A stretch of 64,000 nt of DNA from an uncultured Algibacter sp. (GCF_963976535.1 NZ_CAXBLF010000008.1:1922-65921); one strand, 5' to 3'. Positions 1 through 48,388 are shown, counted from the first letter of the stretch. Notes: a model not told the origin generated them from the sequence alone. Made by a program: numbers and translations.

Positions 1-750
1 GACAATAGTCAATTCTTTAGAAATTCAAATTCTAAAAAGAAGAGTACATCTTCAGCCAATAAACTATGGGTTAATTTAACATCAGATAATGGTGTGTTTA
101 ATCAAATATTATTAGGATACGCAGAAGGAGCTACTAATAACGATGATGGCGCTTATTATGATGCACGAAAGATTGTTGCACCAAAAGCCTTTGCCGCTCT
201 TTACTCAACTATTGAGAACACTGATAAAAAATTCGCTATTCAAGGAAAAGCAACTAACAGTTTAAATGAAGAAGAAATCATCAGTCTTGGTTTCAGTACG
301 AATATTGATGTAGCAACACTTTACAAATTATCTCTAGCACAAATTGAAGGTGAATTTTTAACAAGTAACACTGTTTACTTAAAAGATAATTTGCTTAATA
401 CGTTACATGATTTATCAGCTTCTGATTATACTTTTACTTCTGAAGTGGGAGAATTCAATGAGCGTTTTGAGATTGTATTTAACGCAAATGCTTTATCTAT
501 TGAAGATATTAGTACAAACGCTAACACTTTAAAAATTGTTGAATTAGAAGATGATCGTGTTCAGTTTACAACTTCTAGTAGCATAAAAACGGTTAGAATA
601 TTTGATTTATTAGGAAGACAATTATATGCATTTAAAGGGCAAAAAAATTCAGAAACTTATACCCTTTCAAATTTAAGTAGTACTATTTATATTGCTAAAG
701 TTGAACTTTCAAATGGAGCAACTATAACTAAAAAAGCTTTTAAGAAATAG
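1..750 (+). CDS. 3' part of a T9SS type A C-terminal sorting domain protein (starts before the window)
   Basis: Frame is open from base 1 (DNSQFFRNSNSK...KLWVNLTSDNG) and ends in a typical CTD (IFDLLGRQL...IYIAKV...TKKAFKK). Confidence 0.85.
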   Translation, partial: DNSQFFRNSNSKKKSTSSANKLWVNLTSDNGVFNQILLGYAEGATNNDDGAYYDARKIVAPKAFAALYSTIENTDKKFAIQGKATNSLNEEEIISLGFSTNIDVATLYKLSLAQIEGEFLTSNTVYLKDNLLNTLHDLSASDYTFTSEVGEFNERFEIVFNANALSIEDISTNANTLKIVELEDDRVQFTTSSSIKTVRIFDLLGRQLYAFKGQKNSETYTLSNLSSTIYIAKVELSNGATITKKAFKK

Positions 751-11917: not shown

Positions 11918-11935
11918 TCCCGATAGCTATCGGGA
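11918..11935. repeat. 18-bp perfect palindrome TCCCGATAGCTATCGGGA
   Basis: Exact self-complementary 18-mer; also at 17988, 26595 and 38111, degenerate at 48247. Confidence 0.9.
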
Positions 11936-17536: not shown

Positions 17537-17570
17537 AAAAAAAGCTTCAGGAGTGTAAACTCTCTGAAGC
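17537..17570 (-). terminator. Terminator downstream of tRNA-Asn
   Basis: gcttcag-gagt-gtaa-actc-t-ctgaagc stem followed by a T-run on the minus strand. Confidence 0.7.
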
Positions 17571-17584
17571 CTTATCATTACTTG

Positions 17585-17658
17585 CTCCTTCTCTTGGGCT
17601 CGAACCAAGGACCCTCTGATTAACAGTCAGATGCTCTAACCAACTGAGCTAAGAAGGA
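17585..17658 (-). tRNA. tRNA-Asn(GTT)
   Basis: Reverse complement folds to a 74-nt cloverleaf: TCCTTCT/AGAAGGA acceptor, TCTGA-CTGTTAA-TCAGA anticodon arm, GGTTCGAG T-loop; no encoded CCA. Confidence 0.97.
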
Positions 17659-17661
17659 GTG

Positions 17662-17946
17662 TTACTTATATTTATTTTTAAGCTTTTTAGTACTTTCAGG
17701 ATACTTTTTCAGATTCTGAATATTCGTTTTGCTTTTCATTTTTTTAATATGGGTTTCTATTTTTCTTGCTTGAATTCTATCATTACATTCAATAGTGTAA
17801 TATATTTTCCAGTCTTTTACCTGTTTGGTAAAAGAAGCTTCATAAAAACCAGAATTATGTTATTCAATTCTGTCTTGTAAATCCACAGTTTCACCAACAT
17901 AATATCTGTCAAGTGAATTAGAATACAAAATGTAAACAAAATTCAT
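17662..17946 (-). pseudogene. GIY-YIG nuclease with one in-frame TAA (17860-17862)
   Basis: Hand translation: MNFVYILYSNSLDRYYVGETVDLQDRIE*HNSGFYEASFTKQVKDWKIYYTIECNDRIQARKIETHIKKMKSKTNIQNLKKYPESTKKLKNKYK; the stop lies 3 nt before the tRNA 5' end. Confidence 0.9.
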
Positions 17947-17977
17947 TTTTACTAATTTTAAAAGAACTTACTCGCTT

Positions 17978-18022
17978 TGCTCTAACCTCCCGATAGCTAT
18001 CGGATGAGCTAAGAAGGAGTGT
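17978..18022 (-). repeat. Pseudo-tRNA-Asn 5' half with a TCCCGATAGCTATCGG palindrome in the D-loop
   Basis: Direct repeat of 17632-17662 except that aac is replaced by tcccgatagctatcgga (17988-18004). Confidence 0.88.
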
Positions 18023-18128
18023 GTTTTTTTACTAAGCGAGTGCAAATATATGTTGTTTTTTAATTACTGCAAATATTTTTTTAATAAATTTTACCTGAGT
18101 ACATGACAAAAATTGATAATATATCGGA

Positions 18129-18201
18129 TGTCAATCTGAGCGCAGTCGAAGACATTGGAAATATCGTATTCAAAAGCATTTCGACTGCGCTCAATGTGAC
18201 A
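18129..18201. repeat. REP doublet (GAGCGCAGTCGA family)
   Basis: tgtcaatctgagcgcagtcgaagac ... catttcgactgcgctcaatgtgaca. Confidence 0.9.
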
Positions 18202-18232
18202 CTTTTATATTTTTGTCATGTACTAAAAAATT

Positions 18233-26318: not shown

Positions 26319-26466
26319 ATTTGAAGCTATTCCTGCTATCCGCTGTATCTTTCTTGTGCTGAACTTGTTTCAGTATCTCATCAAGTGATTTGAATACAAG
26401 ATAGTACAAGTTTTAAATAAAATTTTGGAGTTGGCACAAAAAAGTATGCCGCTTCTATCAGGGCTA
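26319..26466 (-). repeat. Dispersed structured repeat (GATAGAAGCGGCAT...AAAGATACAGCGGATAG family) with a nested gtgctgaacttgtttcagtat palindrome
   Basis: Reverse-complement arms match 48053-48070 and 48162-48178. Confidence 0.65.
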
Positions 26467-26516
26467 GATTATCAGCCAAGGTCAGGTTTAAAGCAGACAA
26501 TTAGTGATAAACCTGC

Positions 26517-26594: not shown

Positions 26595-26612
26595 TCCCGA
26601 TAGCTATCGGGA
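26595..26612. repeat. 18-bp palindrome TCCCGATAGCTATCGGGA
   Basis: Exact copy of 11918-11935. Confidence 0.9.
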
Positions 26613-29901: not shown

Positions 29902-30592
29902 TGTTATTCAGAGCATAACGAAGAATCTACTTTACAAAAATTTATCAAATTGCAAGTATAAAACAATAAGTGTATATATTTTTTGATGATGAGACTTTAA
30001 GATTCATTAGTCGTACCTCCATCTGAATGACATTCGATTTATTTTCCTTTGAATGACAATGTCATTCAGAGCGGAGCGAAGAACCTCTTTTATAAAAAGT
30101 TTATTAAATTAACAGTATGAAAACAATTGGCAATCATAATTATTACGTTTACATGCTTACTAATAAAAGTAAAACGGTTTTATATACTGGTGTGACTAAT
30201 AATTTGAAAGATCGTCTTTATTTTCATAAAAATCCACTTCCATTTTCTAAAGCATTTACATCGAAATATAAATGTTATTATTTAGTTTATTATGAGCATT
30301 TTTTTCAAATTGAAAACGCAATTAAAAGAGAGAAACAGATAAAAGGTAAGAGTAGAGCAAAAAAAGACGCTTTAATTTTCGATTTTAATCCTTCGTGGTC
30401 CTTTTTAAATGAAAATATATAATTTTTCAAGATTCTTCAGTCGTTCCTCCTTCTGAATGACATTACGGTTTCTTTTCTTTGAATAGCAATGTCATTCAGA
30501 GGGTAGCGAAGAATCTTTTTTAATAATATTTTACTAAATTCACATTATTAGAGCTAATAAGATTCTTCAGTCGTACCTCCTTCTGAATGACA
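29902..30592. mobile_element. Array of three palindrome-pair (REPIN-like) units, the middle one carrying a GIY-YIG gene
   Basis: A arms at 29902, 30060 and 30490 (TGTCATTCAGAG..GCGAAGAATCT); B arms at 30000, 30430 and 30560 (AGATTCTTCAGTCG..CCTCCTTCTGAATGACA). Confidence 0.8.
30117..30422 (+). CDS. Stand-alone GIY-YIG nuclease (UPF0213/YhbQ-like)
   Basis: YYVYML...LYTGVT...DRLYFH...LVYYE...AIKREKQIK...NPSW. Confidence 0.93.
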   Translation: MKTIGNHNYYVYMLTNKSKTVLYTGVTNNLKDRLYFHKNPLPFSKAFTSKYKCYYLVYYEHFFQIENAIKREKQIKGKSRAKKDALIFDFNPSWSFLNENI

Positions 30593-32375: not shown

Positions 32376-35300
32376 TCAAGCCACAATAGGTTGTAAAGTC
32401 TCTAATGCTTGTTTTACAGATTTAATATTCTCAAAAGTTAGCATTAATCTTAAACCGCTTCGAGTTTGTTTCTCTTTCATTTTACAAGTGCTAGGATTAG
32501 TTTGTACAAATTGCAACACTTTGGTAAAATTAGCACTTTGATAAAACCTACTTTGTTGATCGTTTATAAAATAACCAATCAACTTACCTTGTTTCATAAT
32601 AATTTTTTCAAACCCAATTTTAGTAGCTAACCACTTTATTTGGACACTATTTAATAAATCGGTCACTTGTTTTGGTAATTCTCCAAAACGGTCGATTAAA
32701 TCCATTTCAAAGATATGCAATTCTTCTTCTGTTTTTAAGTTATTAAGCTGCGTGTATAAATTAAGTCGTTCAGCAATATTATTCACATAATTATCTGGAA
32801 ATAAAAGCTCAAAGTCAGTATCAATAGTTACATCTTTAACGTAAACTTTGTTAGCTTCATCTTCATTATATAAATCTTTAAACTCATTTTCTTTTAACTC
32901 CTCGATAGCTTCATTCAATATTTTTTGATAGGTATCAAAACCTATTTCATTTATAAAACCACTTTGTTCTCCGCCCAATAAATCGCCAGCACCACGAATT
33001 TCTAAATCTTTCATCGCGATATTGAATCCGCTTCCCAATTCCGTGAATTGCTCTAAAGCTGTAATACGTTTTCTAGCATCATCAGTCATGGCCGAATACT
33101 CTGGTGTAATAAAATAACAGAATGCTTTTTTGTTACTCCGACCTACTCTACCGCGCATTTGATGCAAATCGCTTAATCCAAAATTATTGGCATTATTGAT
33201 GAAAATGGTATTAGCATTTGGTACATCAAGTCCGCTTTCTACAATTGTCGTACTTACCAATACATCAAAACCGCCATCCATAAACGAAAGCATAAGTTGC
33301 TCTAATTTTTTACCTTCCATTTGCCCATGACCGATACCTATTTTTGCATCGGGCACCAAACGTTGAATCATACCTGCAACTTCTTTAATATTTTCAATAC
33401 GATTATGTATAAAGAAAATTTGCCCACCACGTTGTATTTCGTAGCTGATGGCATCACGAATAGTTTCTTCGCTAAAACGAATTACGTGACTTTCAATCGG
33501 GTATCGATTTGGAGGTGGTGTTGTAATGACTGATAAATCTCGAGCAGCCATTAAGCTAAATTGTAACGTTCTCGGGATTGGTGTAGCGGTTAACGTTAGC
33601 ACATCCACATTATCTTTTAAAGTCTTAAGTTTTTCTTTTACGGCTACGCCAAATTTTTGTTCTTCATCAACAATCAACAAGCCTAAATCTTTAAACTTAA
33701 CATTTTTATTAACGAGTTGATGTGTGCCAATAAGGATGTCCACTTTCCCCTGTTCTAAACCTTCTAAAGTTTCTCGTTTCTCTTTTGCTGTCCTAAAACG
33801 GTTGACGTAATCTACCGTAACAGGAAAATCTTTTAAACGCTCTCTAAACGTTCTAGAATGTTGATATGCTAAAATGGTAGTTGGCACCAAAATAGCAACT
33901 TGCTTCCCATTATCTACCGCCTTAAACGCTGCACGAATTGCTACTTCGGTTTTACCAAAACCTACATCGCCACAAATCAAACGATCCATGGGGCGTTCAC
34001 TTTCCATGTCTGCTTTTATATCAGCTGTTGCCGTAGTTTGGTCTGGAGTGTCTTCGTAAATAAAAGAGGCTTCCAATTCGTGTTGCATATAACTATCAGG
34101 ATTATACTGATAGCCTTTTTCGGTTTTACGTTTCGCGTAAAGTTTTATTAAGTTGAAAGCCACATGTTTTACACGTGCCTTTGTTTTTTGTTTTAGGGTT
34201 TTCCAAGCATTACTTCCCAATTTGTAAATCTTGGGTGGTTTGCCATCTTTACCATTAAACTTGGTGATTTTATGTAGCGAATGAATACTTAAATACAGCA
34301 CATCGCGCTCGCCATAAACCAATTTAATGGCTTCTTGTTTTTTACCTTCTACATCTATTTTTTGAAGTCCGCCAAATCGCCCAATACCATGATCGATGTG
34401 TGTTACGTAATCGCCAATATCTAAATTTGTGAGTTCCTTTAATGTTATGGCTTGCTTTTTAGCATACCCGTTTTTAAGATGAAATTTATGATAACGCTCG
34501 AAAATTTGATGATCGGTGTAACACACTATTTTATTATCGTGGTCTGTAAAACCTTGATGTAGGGATAAAATAATGGTTTGATATTCTTTGACATCGAGAT
34601 GTGAATCATCAAAAATATCATGAAAACGTTTTGCCTGTTGTTCGCTTACGCATGCAATGTAGTTTGTATAACCGTTTTCGCTATTGGTATTTAGATCTTC
34701 GATTAATAGATTGAATTGTTTATTGAATGCTGGTTGCGGTGTGGTGTGGTGTTCAATAGTTTGAGATTCTTCGCTTCGCTCTGAATGACAAAAGACACTC
34801 TGTGTCCCAAACTCTATAACTGAAAAGTCGAGTAACTGCCTTTTTAATACTGTTGAATTACAAAATAGTTCGTTAGGTTCGGCATGTTTAATATCTGTTG
34901 AAAGTGTTTTAAAAGCGTCTTGTGCTTTATCATAAAAATCATCAATTCTAGAAAAAAGTAAATCGGCATTTTTTAAACACACTACTGTTTTTTGAGCAAT
35001 ATATTTCAGAAAACTTTGTCGGTTTTCTTGTAATAATTTATTCGCTACATTAGGAATAATGCTGATTTTTTTAATCTGCTCGATGGAAAGCTGTGTTTCT
35101 ACATCAAAGGTTCTGATACTGTCCACTTCATCACCAAAAAACTCGATTCGATAAGGCTCGTCATGTGAAAATGAAAACACATCTACTATGCCGCCTCGCA
35201 CTGAAAACTCTCCAGGTTCTGTAACAAAATCGACACGCTTGAATTGATATTCAAACAAAACTTCGTTTACAAAATCAATAGACACCTTATCATTGACACC

Positions 35301-36726: not shown

Positions 36727-38880
36727 TTATTTATGTAATTTTAATTGAATACGCTTACGTGGAATATCTACCTCTAACACTTTTACAATAATTTGTTGAT
36801 GCAAACTCACGTGTTCGTTTACATCTTTTACAAATGAATCAGATAAGTTTGATACATGAATTAATCCACTTTCTTTGATACCAACATCTACAAAACATCC
36901 AAAGTTTGTTATGTTATTGACGATTCCTGGAAGTAGCTGTCCTTCGCGTAAGTCGTTTATCGTTTTTATATTTTGATTGAAGGTGAATACTTTAGCTTGC
37001 TCTTTAATATCCAAACCAGGTTTTTCAAGTTCTTTAATGATATCTTCAAGCGTTAGCAGCCCAACTGAATCTGTGCAATATTTTTTTAAATCAATCTTTT
37101 GAAGTACATCTTTATTTCCAATTAAATCATGAACTGATTTACCCAAATCTTTAGCCATTTTAGTTACTATCCCATAACTTTCAGGATGTACTGCAGAATC
37201 ATCCAATGGGTTTTTAGCACCCTTAATTCTCAAAAATGCAGCGCCTTGCTCAAAGGCTTTTTCGCCTAAACGTGGTACATTTTTAATCTCTTTTCTAGAT
37301 GTGAATACGCCATTTTCATTTCTGTAATTGAAAATATTTTCGGCTAGTTTTGAACCAATACCTGAAACAGAGCTTAGCAACGGTTTACTTGCTGTATTGA
37401 TGTTTACACCAACAGCATTTACACAATTTTCTACCACAACATCCAATTGCTTTTGAAGTTTGGTTTGATCTACATCATGCTGGTATTGACCAACGCCAAT
37501 AGATTTTGCATCAATTTTTACCAATTCGGCTAGCGGATCTTGTAAACGACGCCCAATAGAAACTGAACCCCGAACCGTAACATCATAATTTGGAAATTCT
37601 TCTCTAGCAATTTTTGAAGCTGAATAAATACTAGCTCCTGCTTCACTCACCACAAACACTTTTACATCGTTTTTAAAATGCACTTTTCTAATCAAAGCTT
37701 CTGTTTCTCTTGAAGCGGTGCCATTTCCAATGGCTATGGCTTCAATTTTATAAGCATCGGCTAACGAGCCTATTTTTTTCATAGCTCCGATGCTATCGCT
37801 TTTTGGTGGATGCGGATAAATGGTTTCGTTATATTTTAATTGCCCTTGAGCGTCTAAACATACCACTTTGCAACCTGTTCTAAATCCTGGGTCTATGGCT
37901 AAAACGCGTTTTTCACCTAATGGCGACCCTAATAATAATTGTTTTAGGTTTTTAGCAAATACGATAATTGCAGATTCATCGGCTTTTTCTTTTGCAATTT
38001 GCAACGCTTCATTACTTAAGGACGGTAATAATAATCGTTTGTAAGCATCTTTAATGGCAAGTTCTATTTGTTCCCTGCCAGCAGGCAGGCTAGGCGCGCA
38101 AGCGTTATTACCCCGATAGCTATCGGGGCGAATCATTCTACTTTCAATTTTATCTAAAGCTTTATCATTATCTATCTCAATTTTAACACGAATAAACCCT
38201 TCACTTTCGGCTCTTAAAATAGCTAACAATCGGTGTGATGGAATTCTGCTTAAGCGCTCTTCCCAATCAAAATAATCTCTAAACTTTTGCGCTTTTTCAT
38301 CCGCTGCCTTTGTTTTTATCACTTTCGTGGAAATCATAGCGAAACGCTCTAATTGATGACGAATATTATTTCTTATATCGGTTCGTTCATTAATCCATTC
38401 GGCAATAATGTGTCGCGCCCCTTCTAAAGTGTCTTCAACTGAATTTATCTCGCCTTTCACATATTTAAATGCTATGGATTCGATATCGTTAACATTTTGG
38501 CTCATTATGATTTTAGCGAGTGGTTCTAATCCATTTTGGCGTGCTTTTTCTGCTTTGGTTTTTCTGCTTTTCTTGTATGGTAAGTATAAATCTTCAAGTG
38601 TGGTTATATCTTGAGTAGCTTCTATTTTTTGTTTTAATTCTGGAGTTAAAACAGCTTGTTCTTCTAAAGCTTTTAAAATGGCTTTTTTTCGTTTTTCTAA
38701 AGCTTCAAATTGCTCTTTAAGCTTAACGATTTCTCCTATTTGAACCTCATCTAAATTTCCCGTGCGTTCTTTTCTGTAACGCGAAATAAAAGGGATGGTG
38801 CAATCTTCATTAAGTAATTCAATCGTGTTTTTTACCGATTGTTTAGGTAGTTTCGTATTTGAAATTATATAATCTATCAT
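36727..38880 (-). CDS. tex: Tex family RNA-binding protein
   Basis: TIPFISRYRKE, DPGFRTGCK, GRRLQDPLAELVK, HhH and S1 domains. Confidence 0.95.
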   Translation of the reverse strand: MIDYIISNTKLPKQSVKNTIELLNEDCTIPFISRYRKERTGNLDEVQIGEIVKLKEQFEALEKRKKAILKALEEQAVLTPELKQKIEATQDITTLEDLYLPYKKSRKTKAEKARQNGLEPLAKIIMSQNVNDIESIAFKYVKGEINSVEDTLEGARHIIAEWINERTDIRNNIRHQLERFAMISTKVIKTKAADEKAQKFRDYFDWEERLSRIPSHRLLAILRAESEGFIRVKIEIDNDKALDKIESRMIRPDSYRGNNACAPSLPAGREQIELAIKDAYKRLLLPSLSNEALQIAKEKADESAIIVFAKNLKQLLLGSPLGEKRVLAIDPGFRTGCKVVCLDAQGQLKYNETIYPHPPKSDSIGAMKKIGSLADAYKIEAIAIGNGTASRETEALIRKVHFKNDVKVFVVSEAGASIYSASKIAREEFPNYDVTVRGSVSIGRRLQDPLAELVKIDAKSIGVGQYQHDVDQTKLQKQLDVVVENCVNAVGVNINTASKPLLSSVSGIGSKLAENIFNYRNENGVFTSRKEIKNVPRLGEKAFEQGAAFLRIKGAKNPLDDSAVHPESYGIVTKMAKDLGKSVHDLIGNKDVLQKIDLKKYCTDSVGLLTLEDIIKELEKPGLDIKEQAKVFTFNQNIKTINDLREGQLLPGIVNNITNFGCFVDVGIKESGLIHVSNLSDSFVKDVNEHVSLHQQIIVKVLEVDIPRKRIQLKLHK
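38074..38128 (-). repeat. Two palindromes in frame inside tex (RPDSYRG and SLPAGR)
   Basis: ccccgatagctatcgggg (38111-38128) and cctgccagcaggcagg (38074-38089). Confidence 0.88.
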
Positions 38881-47968: not shown

Positions 47969-48044
47969 GTAATTTTTTTGTTTTTAATACGTCCAAATAT
48001 ACTATTGTTAGTTGAATTTTTTATCCTTTTGTTACAATTGTACT

Positions 48045-48218
48045 GCGTTAAGGATAGAAGTGGCATCCTTTATGCGAAGAATTGATACTATATATTTTCT
48101 TTATAAATAAAAATTATTTAATAGTTAGAGATCCCGAAGCAAGTTCGGGACTGCTTCGCAGAAAGATATAACGGATAGCCTGACCTTATAACGCCATAAG
48201 CGTTTTAAGGGAACGCCC
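48045..48218 (+). ncRNA. Structured Flavobacterial repeat/ncRNA candidate (Flavo-1-like) carrying internal inserts
   Basis: gcgttaaggatagaagtggcatcc...aaagatataacggatagcctgacc...gggaacgccc; nested atcccgaagcaagttcggga. Confidence 0.45.
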
Positions 48219-48388
48219 AGAAAAAGATTAACAATAATTTATGAGTTCCCCATAGACATCGGGATTAGTTCAACTATATCATTTTACGGCGTTGTAAAAA
48301 CAACTTATAAAATGATAGTCTCACTAAATTGCATGATTTTTGATTAACTTTGTACAATTATTAATTATAAAATAAAAAATTTAAAAAT

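Follow-up and report, generated by a model that had tools for sequence, protein, structure and literature searches.

The window, the whole 64-kb stretch of DNA from an uncultured Algibacter sp. that was analyzed, contains a single tRNA gene according to ARAGORN and Rfam, an intact tRNA-Asn(GTT) at 17584..17658 (called by ARAGORN; Rfam tRNA score 68.9 bits). This gene and the features around it lie on the minus strand unless otherwise given. The native tRNA-Asn promoter, of the Bacteroidota type, was found at 18043..18073 (TTTGCA at 18073-18068, a 17-nt spacer and TATATTTG at 18050-18043) as a match of the promoter-like scan. The initial annotation had recognized the TATATTTG box, but its position (18041-18048) was off by two. 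About 20 nt separate the promoter from the displaced original 5' part of the tRNA-Asn (17978..18022), which comprises nt -4..14 and 18..27 split by a palindrome and forms copy 1 of a direct repeat. Read from 18022 to 17978, this fragment is ACAC-TCCTTCTTAGCTCA-[TCCGATAGCTATCGGGA]-GGTTAGAGCA, in which the GTT of the D-loop (G15-T17) has been swapped for a 17-nt palindrome, TCCGATAGCTATCGGGA (17988..18004, without strand). This 17-mer (PAL') is a degenerate copy of the family palindrome TCCCGATAGCTATCGGGA (PAL). No tRNA was called in the upstream partial copy by ARAGORN or Rfam. The fragment is followed by a leader of 31 nt, X (17947..17977), with a GTTCTTT motif conserved in the alignment of 28 loci of the same layout, and by a GIY-YIG nuclease pseudogene of 94 codons (17662..17946; ATG at 17946, stop codon TAA at 17664-17662) interrupted in frame by a TAA at 17862-17860 (consensus CAA, Gln29) and carrying a Y75N substitution. 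Only the 3-nt gap CAC lies between its stop codon and the tRNA. The working tRNA takes its 5' part from copy 2 of the direct repeat (17632..17662, tRNA nt -4..27), which overlaps the ORF stop codon by one base, the last of the codon being the first of the repeat. The tRNA 5' copy with its palindrome, the leader, the 94-codon ORF interrupted by one TAA and the complete tRNA 3 nt further on were thus confirmed as originally described. A terminator-like hairpin, GCTTCAG..CTGAAGC followed by T7, was read from the sequence 3' of the tRNA (17537..17570); it was absent from the terminator scan because its loop exceeds 8 nt, and counterpart hairpins stand 3' of the tRNA in relatives.

The insert measures 0.36 kb, and the neighbors of the cassette are rseP, encoding an M50 protease, and a PMT_2 glycosyltransferase gene. 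In agreement with the proposal that the element is integrase-free, no second ORF was found in the window between rseP and the tRNA, and no site-specific recombinase in the insert. The read-through product matched the Pfam family GIY-YIG (PF01541, E=1.9e-13, residues 1-73), and its Pfam matches were GIY-YIG and T5orf172 only. The ORF is probably read from the tRNA promoter, as first suggested, since the 31-nt leader has no room for a promoter; the position supports this use, and the promoter/leader block was conserved in 24 of the 28 aligned loci. The fold of the leader RNA was barely more stable than that of shuffled sequences (z=-1.9), and the only RNA structure claimed is the palindrome hairpin. 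Additionally, the interval from the rseP stop codon to the tRNA promoter was observed to hold an element of 127 nt (18098-18224); it is bounded by perfect terminal inverted repeats of 16 nt (AGTACATGACAAAAAT) and has an inner inverted repeat of 22 nt. Given that two relatives (L003 and L175) have only ~25 nt in this interval, the element resembles a MITE-type insertion.

The repaired protein was used as a query and 93 homologs of ~94 aa were retrieved, with identities of up to 77%; their named sources were Flavobacteriaceae and other Bacteroidota. Residues Y5, Y16, R26, H30 and E64 were invariant in sets of 25 and 43 homologs, and G18 was invariant in the set of 25 and present in at least 90% of the set of 43. 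The window copy retains the catalytic residues despite the stop at codon 29. Since the homologs carry Gln at that position, a change from CAA to TAA took place in the window; Tyr75, nearly invariant in the homologs, is replaced by Asn, and the palindrome is one C short of the 18-mer. These changes bear out the earlier view that the element is decaying here: the nuclease of the window is dead and its palindrome is damaged. In the remaining ortholog pairs dN/dS was between 0.06 and 0.22 in 10 of the 11 that could be computed, the other being L049/L054, with a value of 0.92 and almost no substitutions. Pairs involving the window and the pair L009/L010 were left out of this analysis and of the synonymous comparison below because a stop codon or an indel disturbs the codon alignment. 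Judging from these ratios, the intact orthologs are under purifying selection and the protein is functional elsewhere.

The AF2 model predicted a confident single domain (pLDDT 94.7), with the three-stranded sheet plus helices of the GIY-YIG fold and two short helices in the last 30 residues. The top PDB matches of the model were 1ZG2 (UPF0213 BH0048), the nuclease domain of Slx1 and I-TevI, with Foldseek E values from 3e-3 to 8e-2. GIY-YIG is the only domain in the 94 aa, which are without a DNA-binding or other second domain. PADLOC yielded only weak partial matches of the family to PDC-S14 and UzuA, and no match for it was found in PHROGs or NCBIfam.

The relatives scan, with one genome per species, gave at least 427 loci, and the best 80 were analyzed. 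A co-oriented intact tRNA or tmRNA gene lay within 250 nt in 67 of these best 80 of at least 427 loci, upstream of the ORF in 36 and downstream in 31. Bacterial genomes hold roughly one tRNA per 90 kb, so this adjacency is far beyond chance, and the enrichment of homologs at tRNA genes anticipated by the initial annotation was obtained. The occupied genes comprised ten tRNA anticodon types (Asn, Met, Thr, Val, Leu, Phe and Arg isotypes) and one tmRNA. Two architectures were distinguished. Type (a), the layout of the window, runs from the promoter through a 5' fragment with PAL and the ORF to the intact tRNA, while type (b) starts with the intact tRNA and its terminator, followed by the ORF and a 3' fragment with PAL, often with a copy of the terminator too; the ORF stop codon of type (b) sometimes falls within the tRNA-derived sequence. 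The direct repeats varied in extent across loci, from 30 to 125 nt. Tandem arrays of two to four units were present at 10 of the best 80 of at least 427 loci, and at five loci units stood beside 5'-truncated tRNAs, away from intact ones. The window architecture recurred in 28 related loci, all of Flavobacteriaceae; since the layout is common to at least 28 lineages of this family, the insertion in the window is not a recent, private one. Several of the contigs stop within ~500 nt past the cassette, those of L004, L008, L024, L026, L028, L042 and L070 after 40-290 nt, which would fit short-read assemblies that broke at the duplicated sequence of tRNA and terminator.

The family palindrome, TCCCGATAGCTATCGGGA, is a perfect palindrome of 18 nt, and therefore forms the same hairpin on either strand. 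In 79 of the 80 loci, it or a variant of it was found no more than 300 nt from the ORF, and at the position of the 17-mer of the window all 28 type-(a) loci of Flavobacteriaceae carried either TCCCGATAGCTATCGGGA itself or a variant close to it. As single-stranded DNA, the hairpin of PAL' had a predicted energy of -3.6 kcal/mol, against -5.9 for the consensus. The variants, including CCCCGAAAGCTTTCGGGG and TTCCGATGGCCATCGGAA, preserve two-fold symmetry and track the protein clades, which in turn track the identity of the tRNA. In the tRNA copies PAL takes the place of 3-7 nt at the apex of the D-, anticodon-, variable- or T-loop; these copies derive from the neighboring (cognate) tRNA and are partial, at times full-length. 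Other copies sat in terminator loops or were nested within further PALs. Altogether, 110 PALs were counted within 700 nt of the gene, against none in 309 kb of farther flank. The palindrome that stands in place of GTT is thus a phylum-wide hallmark of the family and not local noise.

When the window was searched with the 18-nt consensus, allowing up to 3 mismatches, five matches were obtained, against none in 100 shuffled sequences. Two of them are exact, solitary and intergenic, away from tRNA and GIY-YIG genes (11918-11935 and 26595-26612). A third, the symmetric variant CCCCGATAGCTATCGGGG (38111-38128), lies in frame in a tex-like ORF (36727-38880, minus strand), where it encodes RPDSYRG; compared with solved Tex structures, the region bearing it is variable. 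None of these exact and symmetric-variant solitary copies is expected by chance. A further PAL-like site with 3 mismatches (48247-48264) is doubtful. Moreover, 46 stretches with exact PAL were found in IMG/VR contigs; no gene of the family was present within 1 kb of them, and no tRNA within 1 kb save in two. A flanking stem of at least 5 bp was observed at ~20% of the solitary PALs, compared with 6.5% in shuffled controls. Two matches to the Flavo-1 RNA (RF01705) above the gathering score were also observed in the window, at 26325-26469 (minus strand) and 48042-48189 (plus strand); both are about twice the length of the model and lie 60-130 nt from a solitary PAL or PAL-like site. Other short palindromes, GAGAAGCC[TGTGCCGCGTTTTTCGCGGTA]AGCCCAAGAGGAGGAGC and GCCTGCC..GGCAGGC, occur in or near tRNA-Asn 3' fragments and PAL (L016 3430-3490, L017 3430-3560 and window 38060-38110), a hint of further hairpin-inserting repeat families in these genomes.

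In the window and in the 28 type-(a) loci, rseP is located upstream of the cassette, the closest relative of the window gene being that of Pseudotamlana agarivorans (RseP 83% identical). The metagenomes were scanned for the promoter followed directly by an intact tRNA-Asn, and 39 loci were obtained with rseP immediately upstream and the same promoter and leader, without the type-(a) insert, against 28 that are occupied. Both the ORF and PAL were absent in 35 of these 39 rseP-tRNA-Asn metagenome loci, as judged from the sequence examined. The promoter conserved in the type-(a) relatives stands right before the intact tRNA in the empty sites. Compared with them, what the window has in addition beyond nt 27 of the tRNA is the 31-nt leader X, the ORF and a second copy of nt -4..27, which keeps the tRNA complete after the insert. 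Since the promoter and leader of the empty sites align upstream of the fragment, the latter is the original 5' end in its native place, at the native distance from the promoter, and the same alignment sets the insertion point after nt 27. The empty-site relatives that the initial annotation had called for therefore exist, and they support its account of an insertion after the D-arm with duplication of the 5' part.

The same rseP-tRNA-Asn locus is occupied by the type-(b) arrangement in two genomes (L053 and L057) and three metagenomes (L129, L146 and L158), the latter three with 2-3 tandem tRNA-Asn genes. The type-(a) repeats reach 1-8 nt into the native leader, and both these leader bases and polymorphisms of the acceptor stem are the same in fragment and tRNA within a locus and differ between loci. 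Synonymous divergence of the nuclease gene was lower than that of the adjacent rseP in all ten usable genome pairs, markedly in four, for example 0.063 vs 0.47 in L016/L017 and 0.021 vs 0.158 in L049/L054. This comparison of sequences suggests a later exchange between lineages for the cassette than for its flank, and the low values could be partly due to constraint or to hitch-hiking with the invariant tRNA. When L016 and L017 were compared for presence or absence of PAL only, strong divergence was seen downstream of the tRNA.

The closest parallel is provided by the Ssn proteins, small single-domain GIY-YIG nucleases whose own gene is flanked by a hairpin repeat; they bind this repeat and cut the ssDNA adjoining it (Chenal et al., 2025; PMC11893778). 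As with Ssn and its NTS repeat, a hairpin repeat lies beside the gene and is scattered in the genome, its variants co-vary with the lineage of the protein, the order repeat-gene-repeat recalls an insertion sequence and the protein is a single domain of ~100 aa (here 94 aa). Unlike the NTS, PAL is without an oriented GTCWY 5' flank, and PAL and its flanks do not conform to the SRM consensus HGTCWY..; in addition, PAL stands here inside partial tRNA copies, and the cassette lies in tRNA and tmRNA genes with target duplication. Since PAL fails the published consensus, only an Ssn-like way of working is claimed for the family, by analogy, and membership of cd10448 is not. The text of the Ssn paper (PMC11893778) makes no mention of tRNA or Bacteroidota. 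SegB, a free-standing GIY-YIG homing endonuclease of T-even phages that drives HR-dependent segmental amplification (PMC13096335), shares a gene statistically tied to tRNA genes, the cutting of tRNA-gene DNA and tandem units of nuclease plus tRNA. However, it is a larger, multi-domain phage protein without a cognate palindrome, whereas the protein described here has 94 aa, is chromosomal and is accompanied by partial duplications and PAL. Occupied and empty alleles are also shared with the Seg and I-TevI homing endonucleases, whose joined DNA-binding domain is absent here.

The REP/REPIN-RAYT systems similarly consist of short palindromic repeats tied to one nuclease-like gene, found in hairpin and terminator contexts and persisting for long, mostly by vertical descent. 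RAYT is nevertheless an HUH Y1 transposase and not a GIY-YIG nuclease, and REPs, of which there are hundreds, are arranged around RAYT in inverted pairs, whereas PAL is concentrated within 700 nt of its gene. Islands and phages that integrate in tRNA genes likewise carry a duplicate that restores the gene and leave the displaced fragment as a direct repeat. They rely on a tyrosine or serine recombinase, are kilobases long and in almost all cases copy the 3' end, whereas the insert described here measures only 0.36 kb and has no recombinase, either the 5' or the 3' part may be duplicated and the repeats span 30-125 nt. The likeness to UPF0213/BH0048 (PDB 1ZG2) and to Slx1, which is structure-specific for branched and hairpin DNA, is confined to the fold, and we know of no link of either to repeats or tRNAs. 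A literature search that included the PAL sequence returned no description of the palindrome, of the tRNA association of the family or of the cassette, with Ssn and SegB appearing only as analogs, and a 2006 phylogenomic survey of GIY-YIG proteins mentions tRNA only for a TrmH fusion. We regard the system as one of a known kind, a GIY-YIG nuclease with its cognate hairpin repeat; there is a substantial chance that its mode of spread is new.

Taking the above together, we lean, with confidence a little better than even, toward reading the feature in the window as a decaying copy of a minimal GIY-YIG cassette that resides in tRNA genes, has no integrase and spreads by hairpin cleavage and repair. 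The tRNA promoter would transcribe the ORF, and cleavage of the downstream tRNA by RNase P would free the ORF from it. The nuclease would be a single-domain GIY-YIG enzyme of the Ssn kind and PAL its cognate hairpin, for which it is the obvious candidate given the linkage of the two and the analogy with Ssn. Breaks made at or near PAL and other exposed hairpins, such as the arms of tRNA genes and terminators, would be mended by recombination, and this repair would account for the partial tRNA duplications and tandem arrays as well as for the PAL copies at the apices of loops. A SegB-like cutting of tRNA genes is, by analogy, a plausible origin of the repeats and arrays. PAL would build up in non-functional fragments near the gene because insertions in working tRNAs would be purged, and recombination at the conserved tRNA would carry the cassette between related genomes. 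The tandem arrays, the two configurations at one locus and the nested and solitary PALs indicate mobility. Against this model, a hydrolytic nuclease by itself does not account for new PAL copies in other loops or for repeats of variable length (30-125 nt); solitary PALs on a stem of at least 5 bp are enriched over controls but are a minority; and purifying selection, together with synteny that has long been conserved, is also compatible with a function domesticated by the host.

The alternatives were ranked in the order domesticated host nuclease, classical homing, remnant of a tandem gene and RNA-level element. An Ssn-like nuclease domesticated by the host would be immobile and might, for example, limit recombination or transformation of PAL-marked DNA; its gene would be parked on the tRNA unit for expression, with PAL and the tRNA fragment as recognition or processing signals in cis. 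The rseP-psi-GIY-tRNA-Asn synteny, kept in 28 loci from many genera of Flavobacteriaceae, and the dN/dS of 0.06-0.22 in 10 of the 11 computable pairs are what this would predict; for Ssn itself, domestication and a role in modulating transformation have been proposed (PMC11893778), and the RAYT/REPIN literature describes those systems as single-copy and vertically inherited. We regard this explanation as unlikely, although deserving of serious consideration, in view of the occupation of ten anticodon types and tmRNA, the two architectures at one locus, the tandem arrays, orphan units and nested and solitary PALs, the empty sites in many close relatives, a cassette younger than its flank at synonymous sites and the decay of the window copy. 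Classical homing of the SegB kind, in which a cassette-free tRNA allele is cut and the cassette copied in by double-strand-break repair with PAL as a protective scar, is judged improbable. A GIY-YIG enzyme, strict adjacency to tRNA genes and the existence of both occupied and empty alleles speak for it, as does the fact that the GTT of the D- or T-loop is often what PAL replaces, SegB being associated with tRNAs and cutting tRNA genes at a T-loop motif (PMC13096335). However, the 94-aa protein is without a DNA-binding domain, and since every occupied locus keeps an intact tRNA, that tRNA would still be open to cutting. An 18-nt sequence conserved across the phylum with symmetric variants is also unlike a scar, particularly as it is found far from tRNAs and nested in itself, and one PAL is common to protein clades on different tRNAs.

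The duplication might also not have been made by the element at all; in that case the ORF would have overwritten the 3' part of an older tandem tRNA-Asn gene, and the fragment would be what was left of it. The three metagenome loci with 2-3 tandem tRNA-Asn genes (L129, L146 and L158) would offer such a starting point. This reading is very improbable, because the 1-8 leader bases of the repeat match within a locus and differ between loci; besides, where tandem genes do exist the end of the inter-tRNA spacer is unlike the end of the leader, and the mirrored logic, with a 3' fragment and a copied terminator, recurs at other tRNAs. An RNA-level element, either a group I intron or a split tRNA joined after transcription, has next to no probability. 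Group I introns of bacterial tRNA genes do hold GIY-YIG ORFs according to PMC3984707, yet only 31 nt are non-coding here, with no ribozyme, the downstream tRNA is already complete and the repeats include leader and terminator DNA. A group I intron is refuted by the anatomy, given that the junction lies at nt 27 and not in the anticodon loop, and no intron or ribozyme was detected at the locus by Rfam searches at a permissive E-value over 16-20 kb and at the gathering threshold over the window.

If the mobile-cassette explanation is true, the tRNA genes of a major phylum host an integrase-free parasite or passenger of 0.36 kb, and a bare nuclease together with host repair can direct an insertion to a site and restore the target. 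A bolder proposal, advanced tentatively and with less than even confidence, is that PAL and the 94-aa nuclease represent an unrecognised form of bacterial mobile DNA, in which a hairpin-specific nuclease would copy the palindrome into the apices of DNA hairpins, whether in tRNA-gene arms, terminators or PAL itself, without a recombinase or transposase while the gene would colonize tRNA and tmRNA genes through duplications made by repair. The 18-nt PAL would then be among the smallest mobile units known, and target duplications induced by the nuclease would keep the tRNA or tmRNA gene of the host working. The system would also offer a natural setting for testing the link between Ssn-type nucleases and the spread of repeats, and a strand-symmetric pair of palindrome and enzyme would join a family that is being developed as ssDNA tools. 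For annotation, the cassette results in tRNA pseudo-fragments and missed ORFs.

Additionally, a second small GIY-YIG ORF was observed in the window (30117-30422, plus strand; region 29996-30548), flanked by direct repeats of 123 nt that are 80% identical and 430 nt apart. As previously pointed out, its product is of a different subtype, with 33% identity over 70 aa to the tRNA-associated protein and flanking repeats unlike those of the latter. No match to the strict SRM pattern was found at these repeats. They consist of hairpin units, GTCATTC...GAATC, that resemble the NTS repeat of the Neisseria Ssn nucleases, and gene and repeats together have the look of a true Ssn/SRM pair. At ~10479 (minus strand) there is a near-NTS copy, TGTCATTCTCGCGAAAGCGGGAATC, and a further site was observed at 34789 (minus strand).
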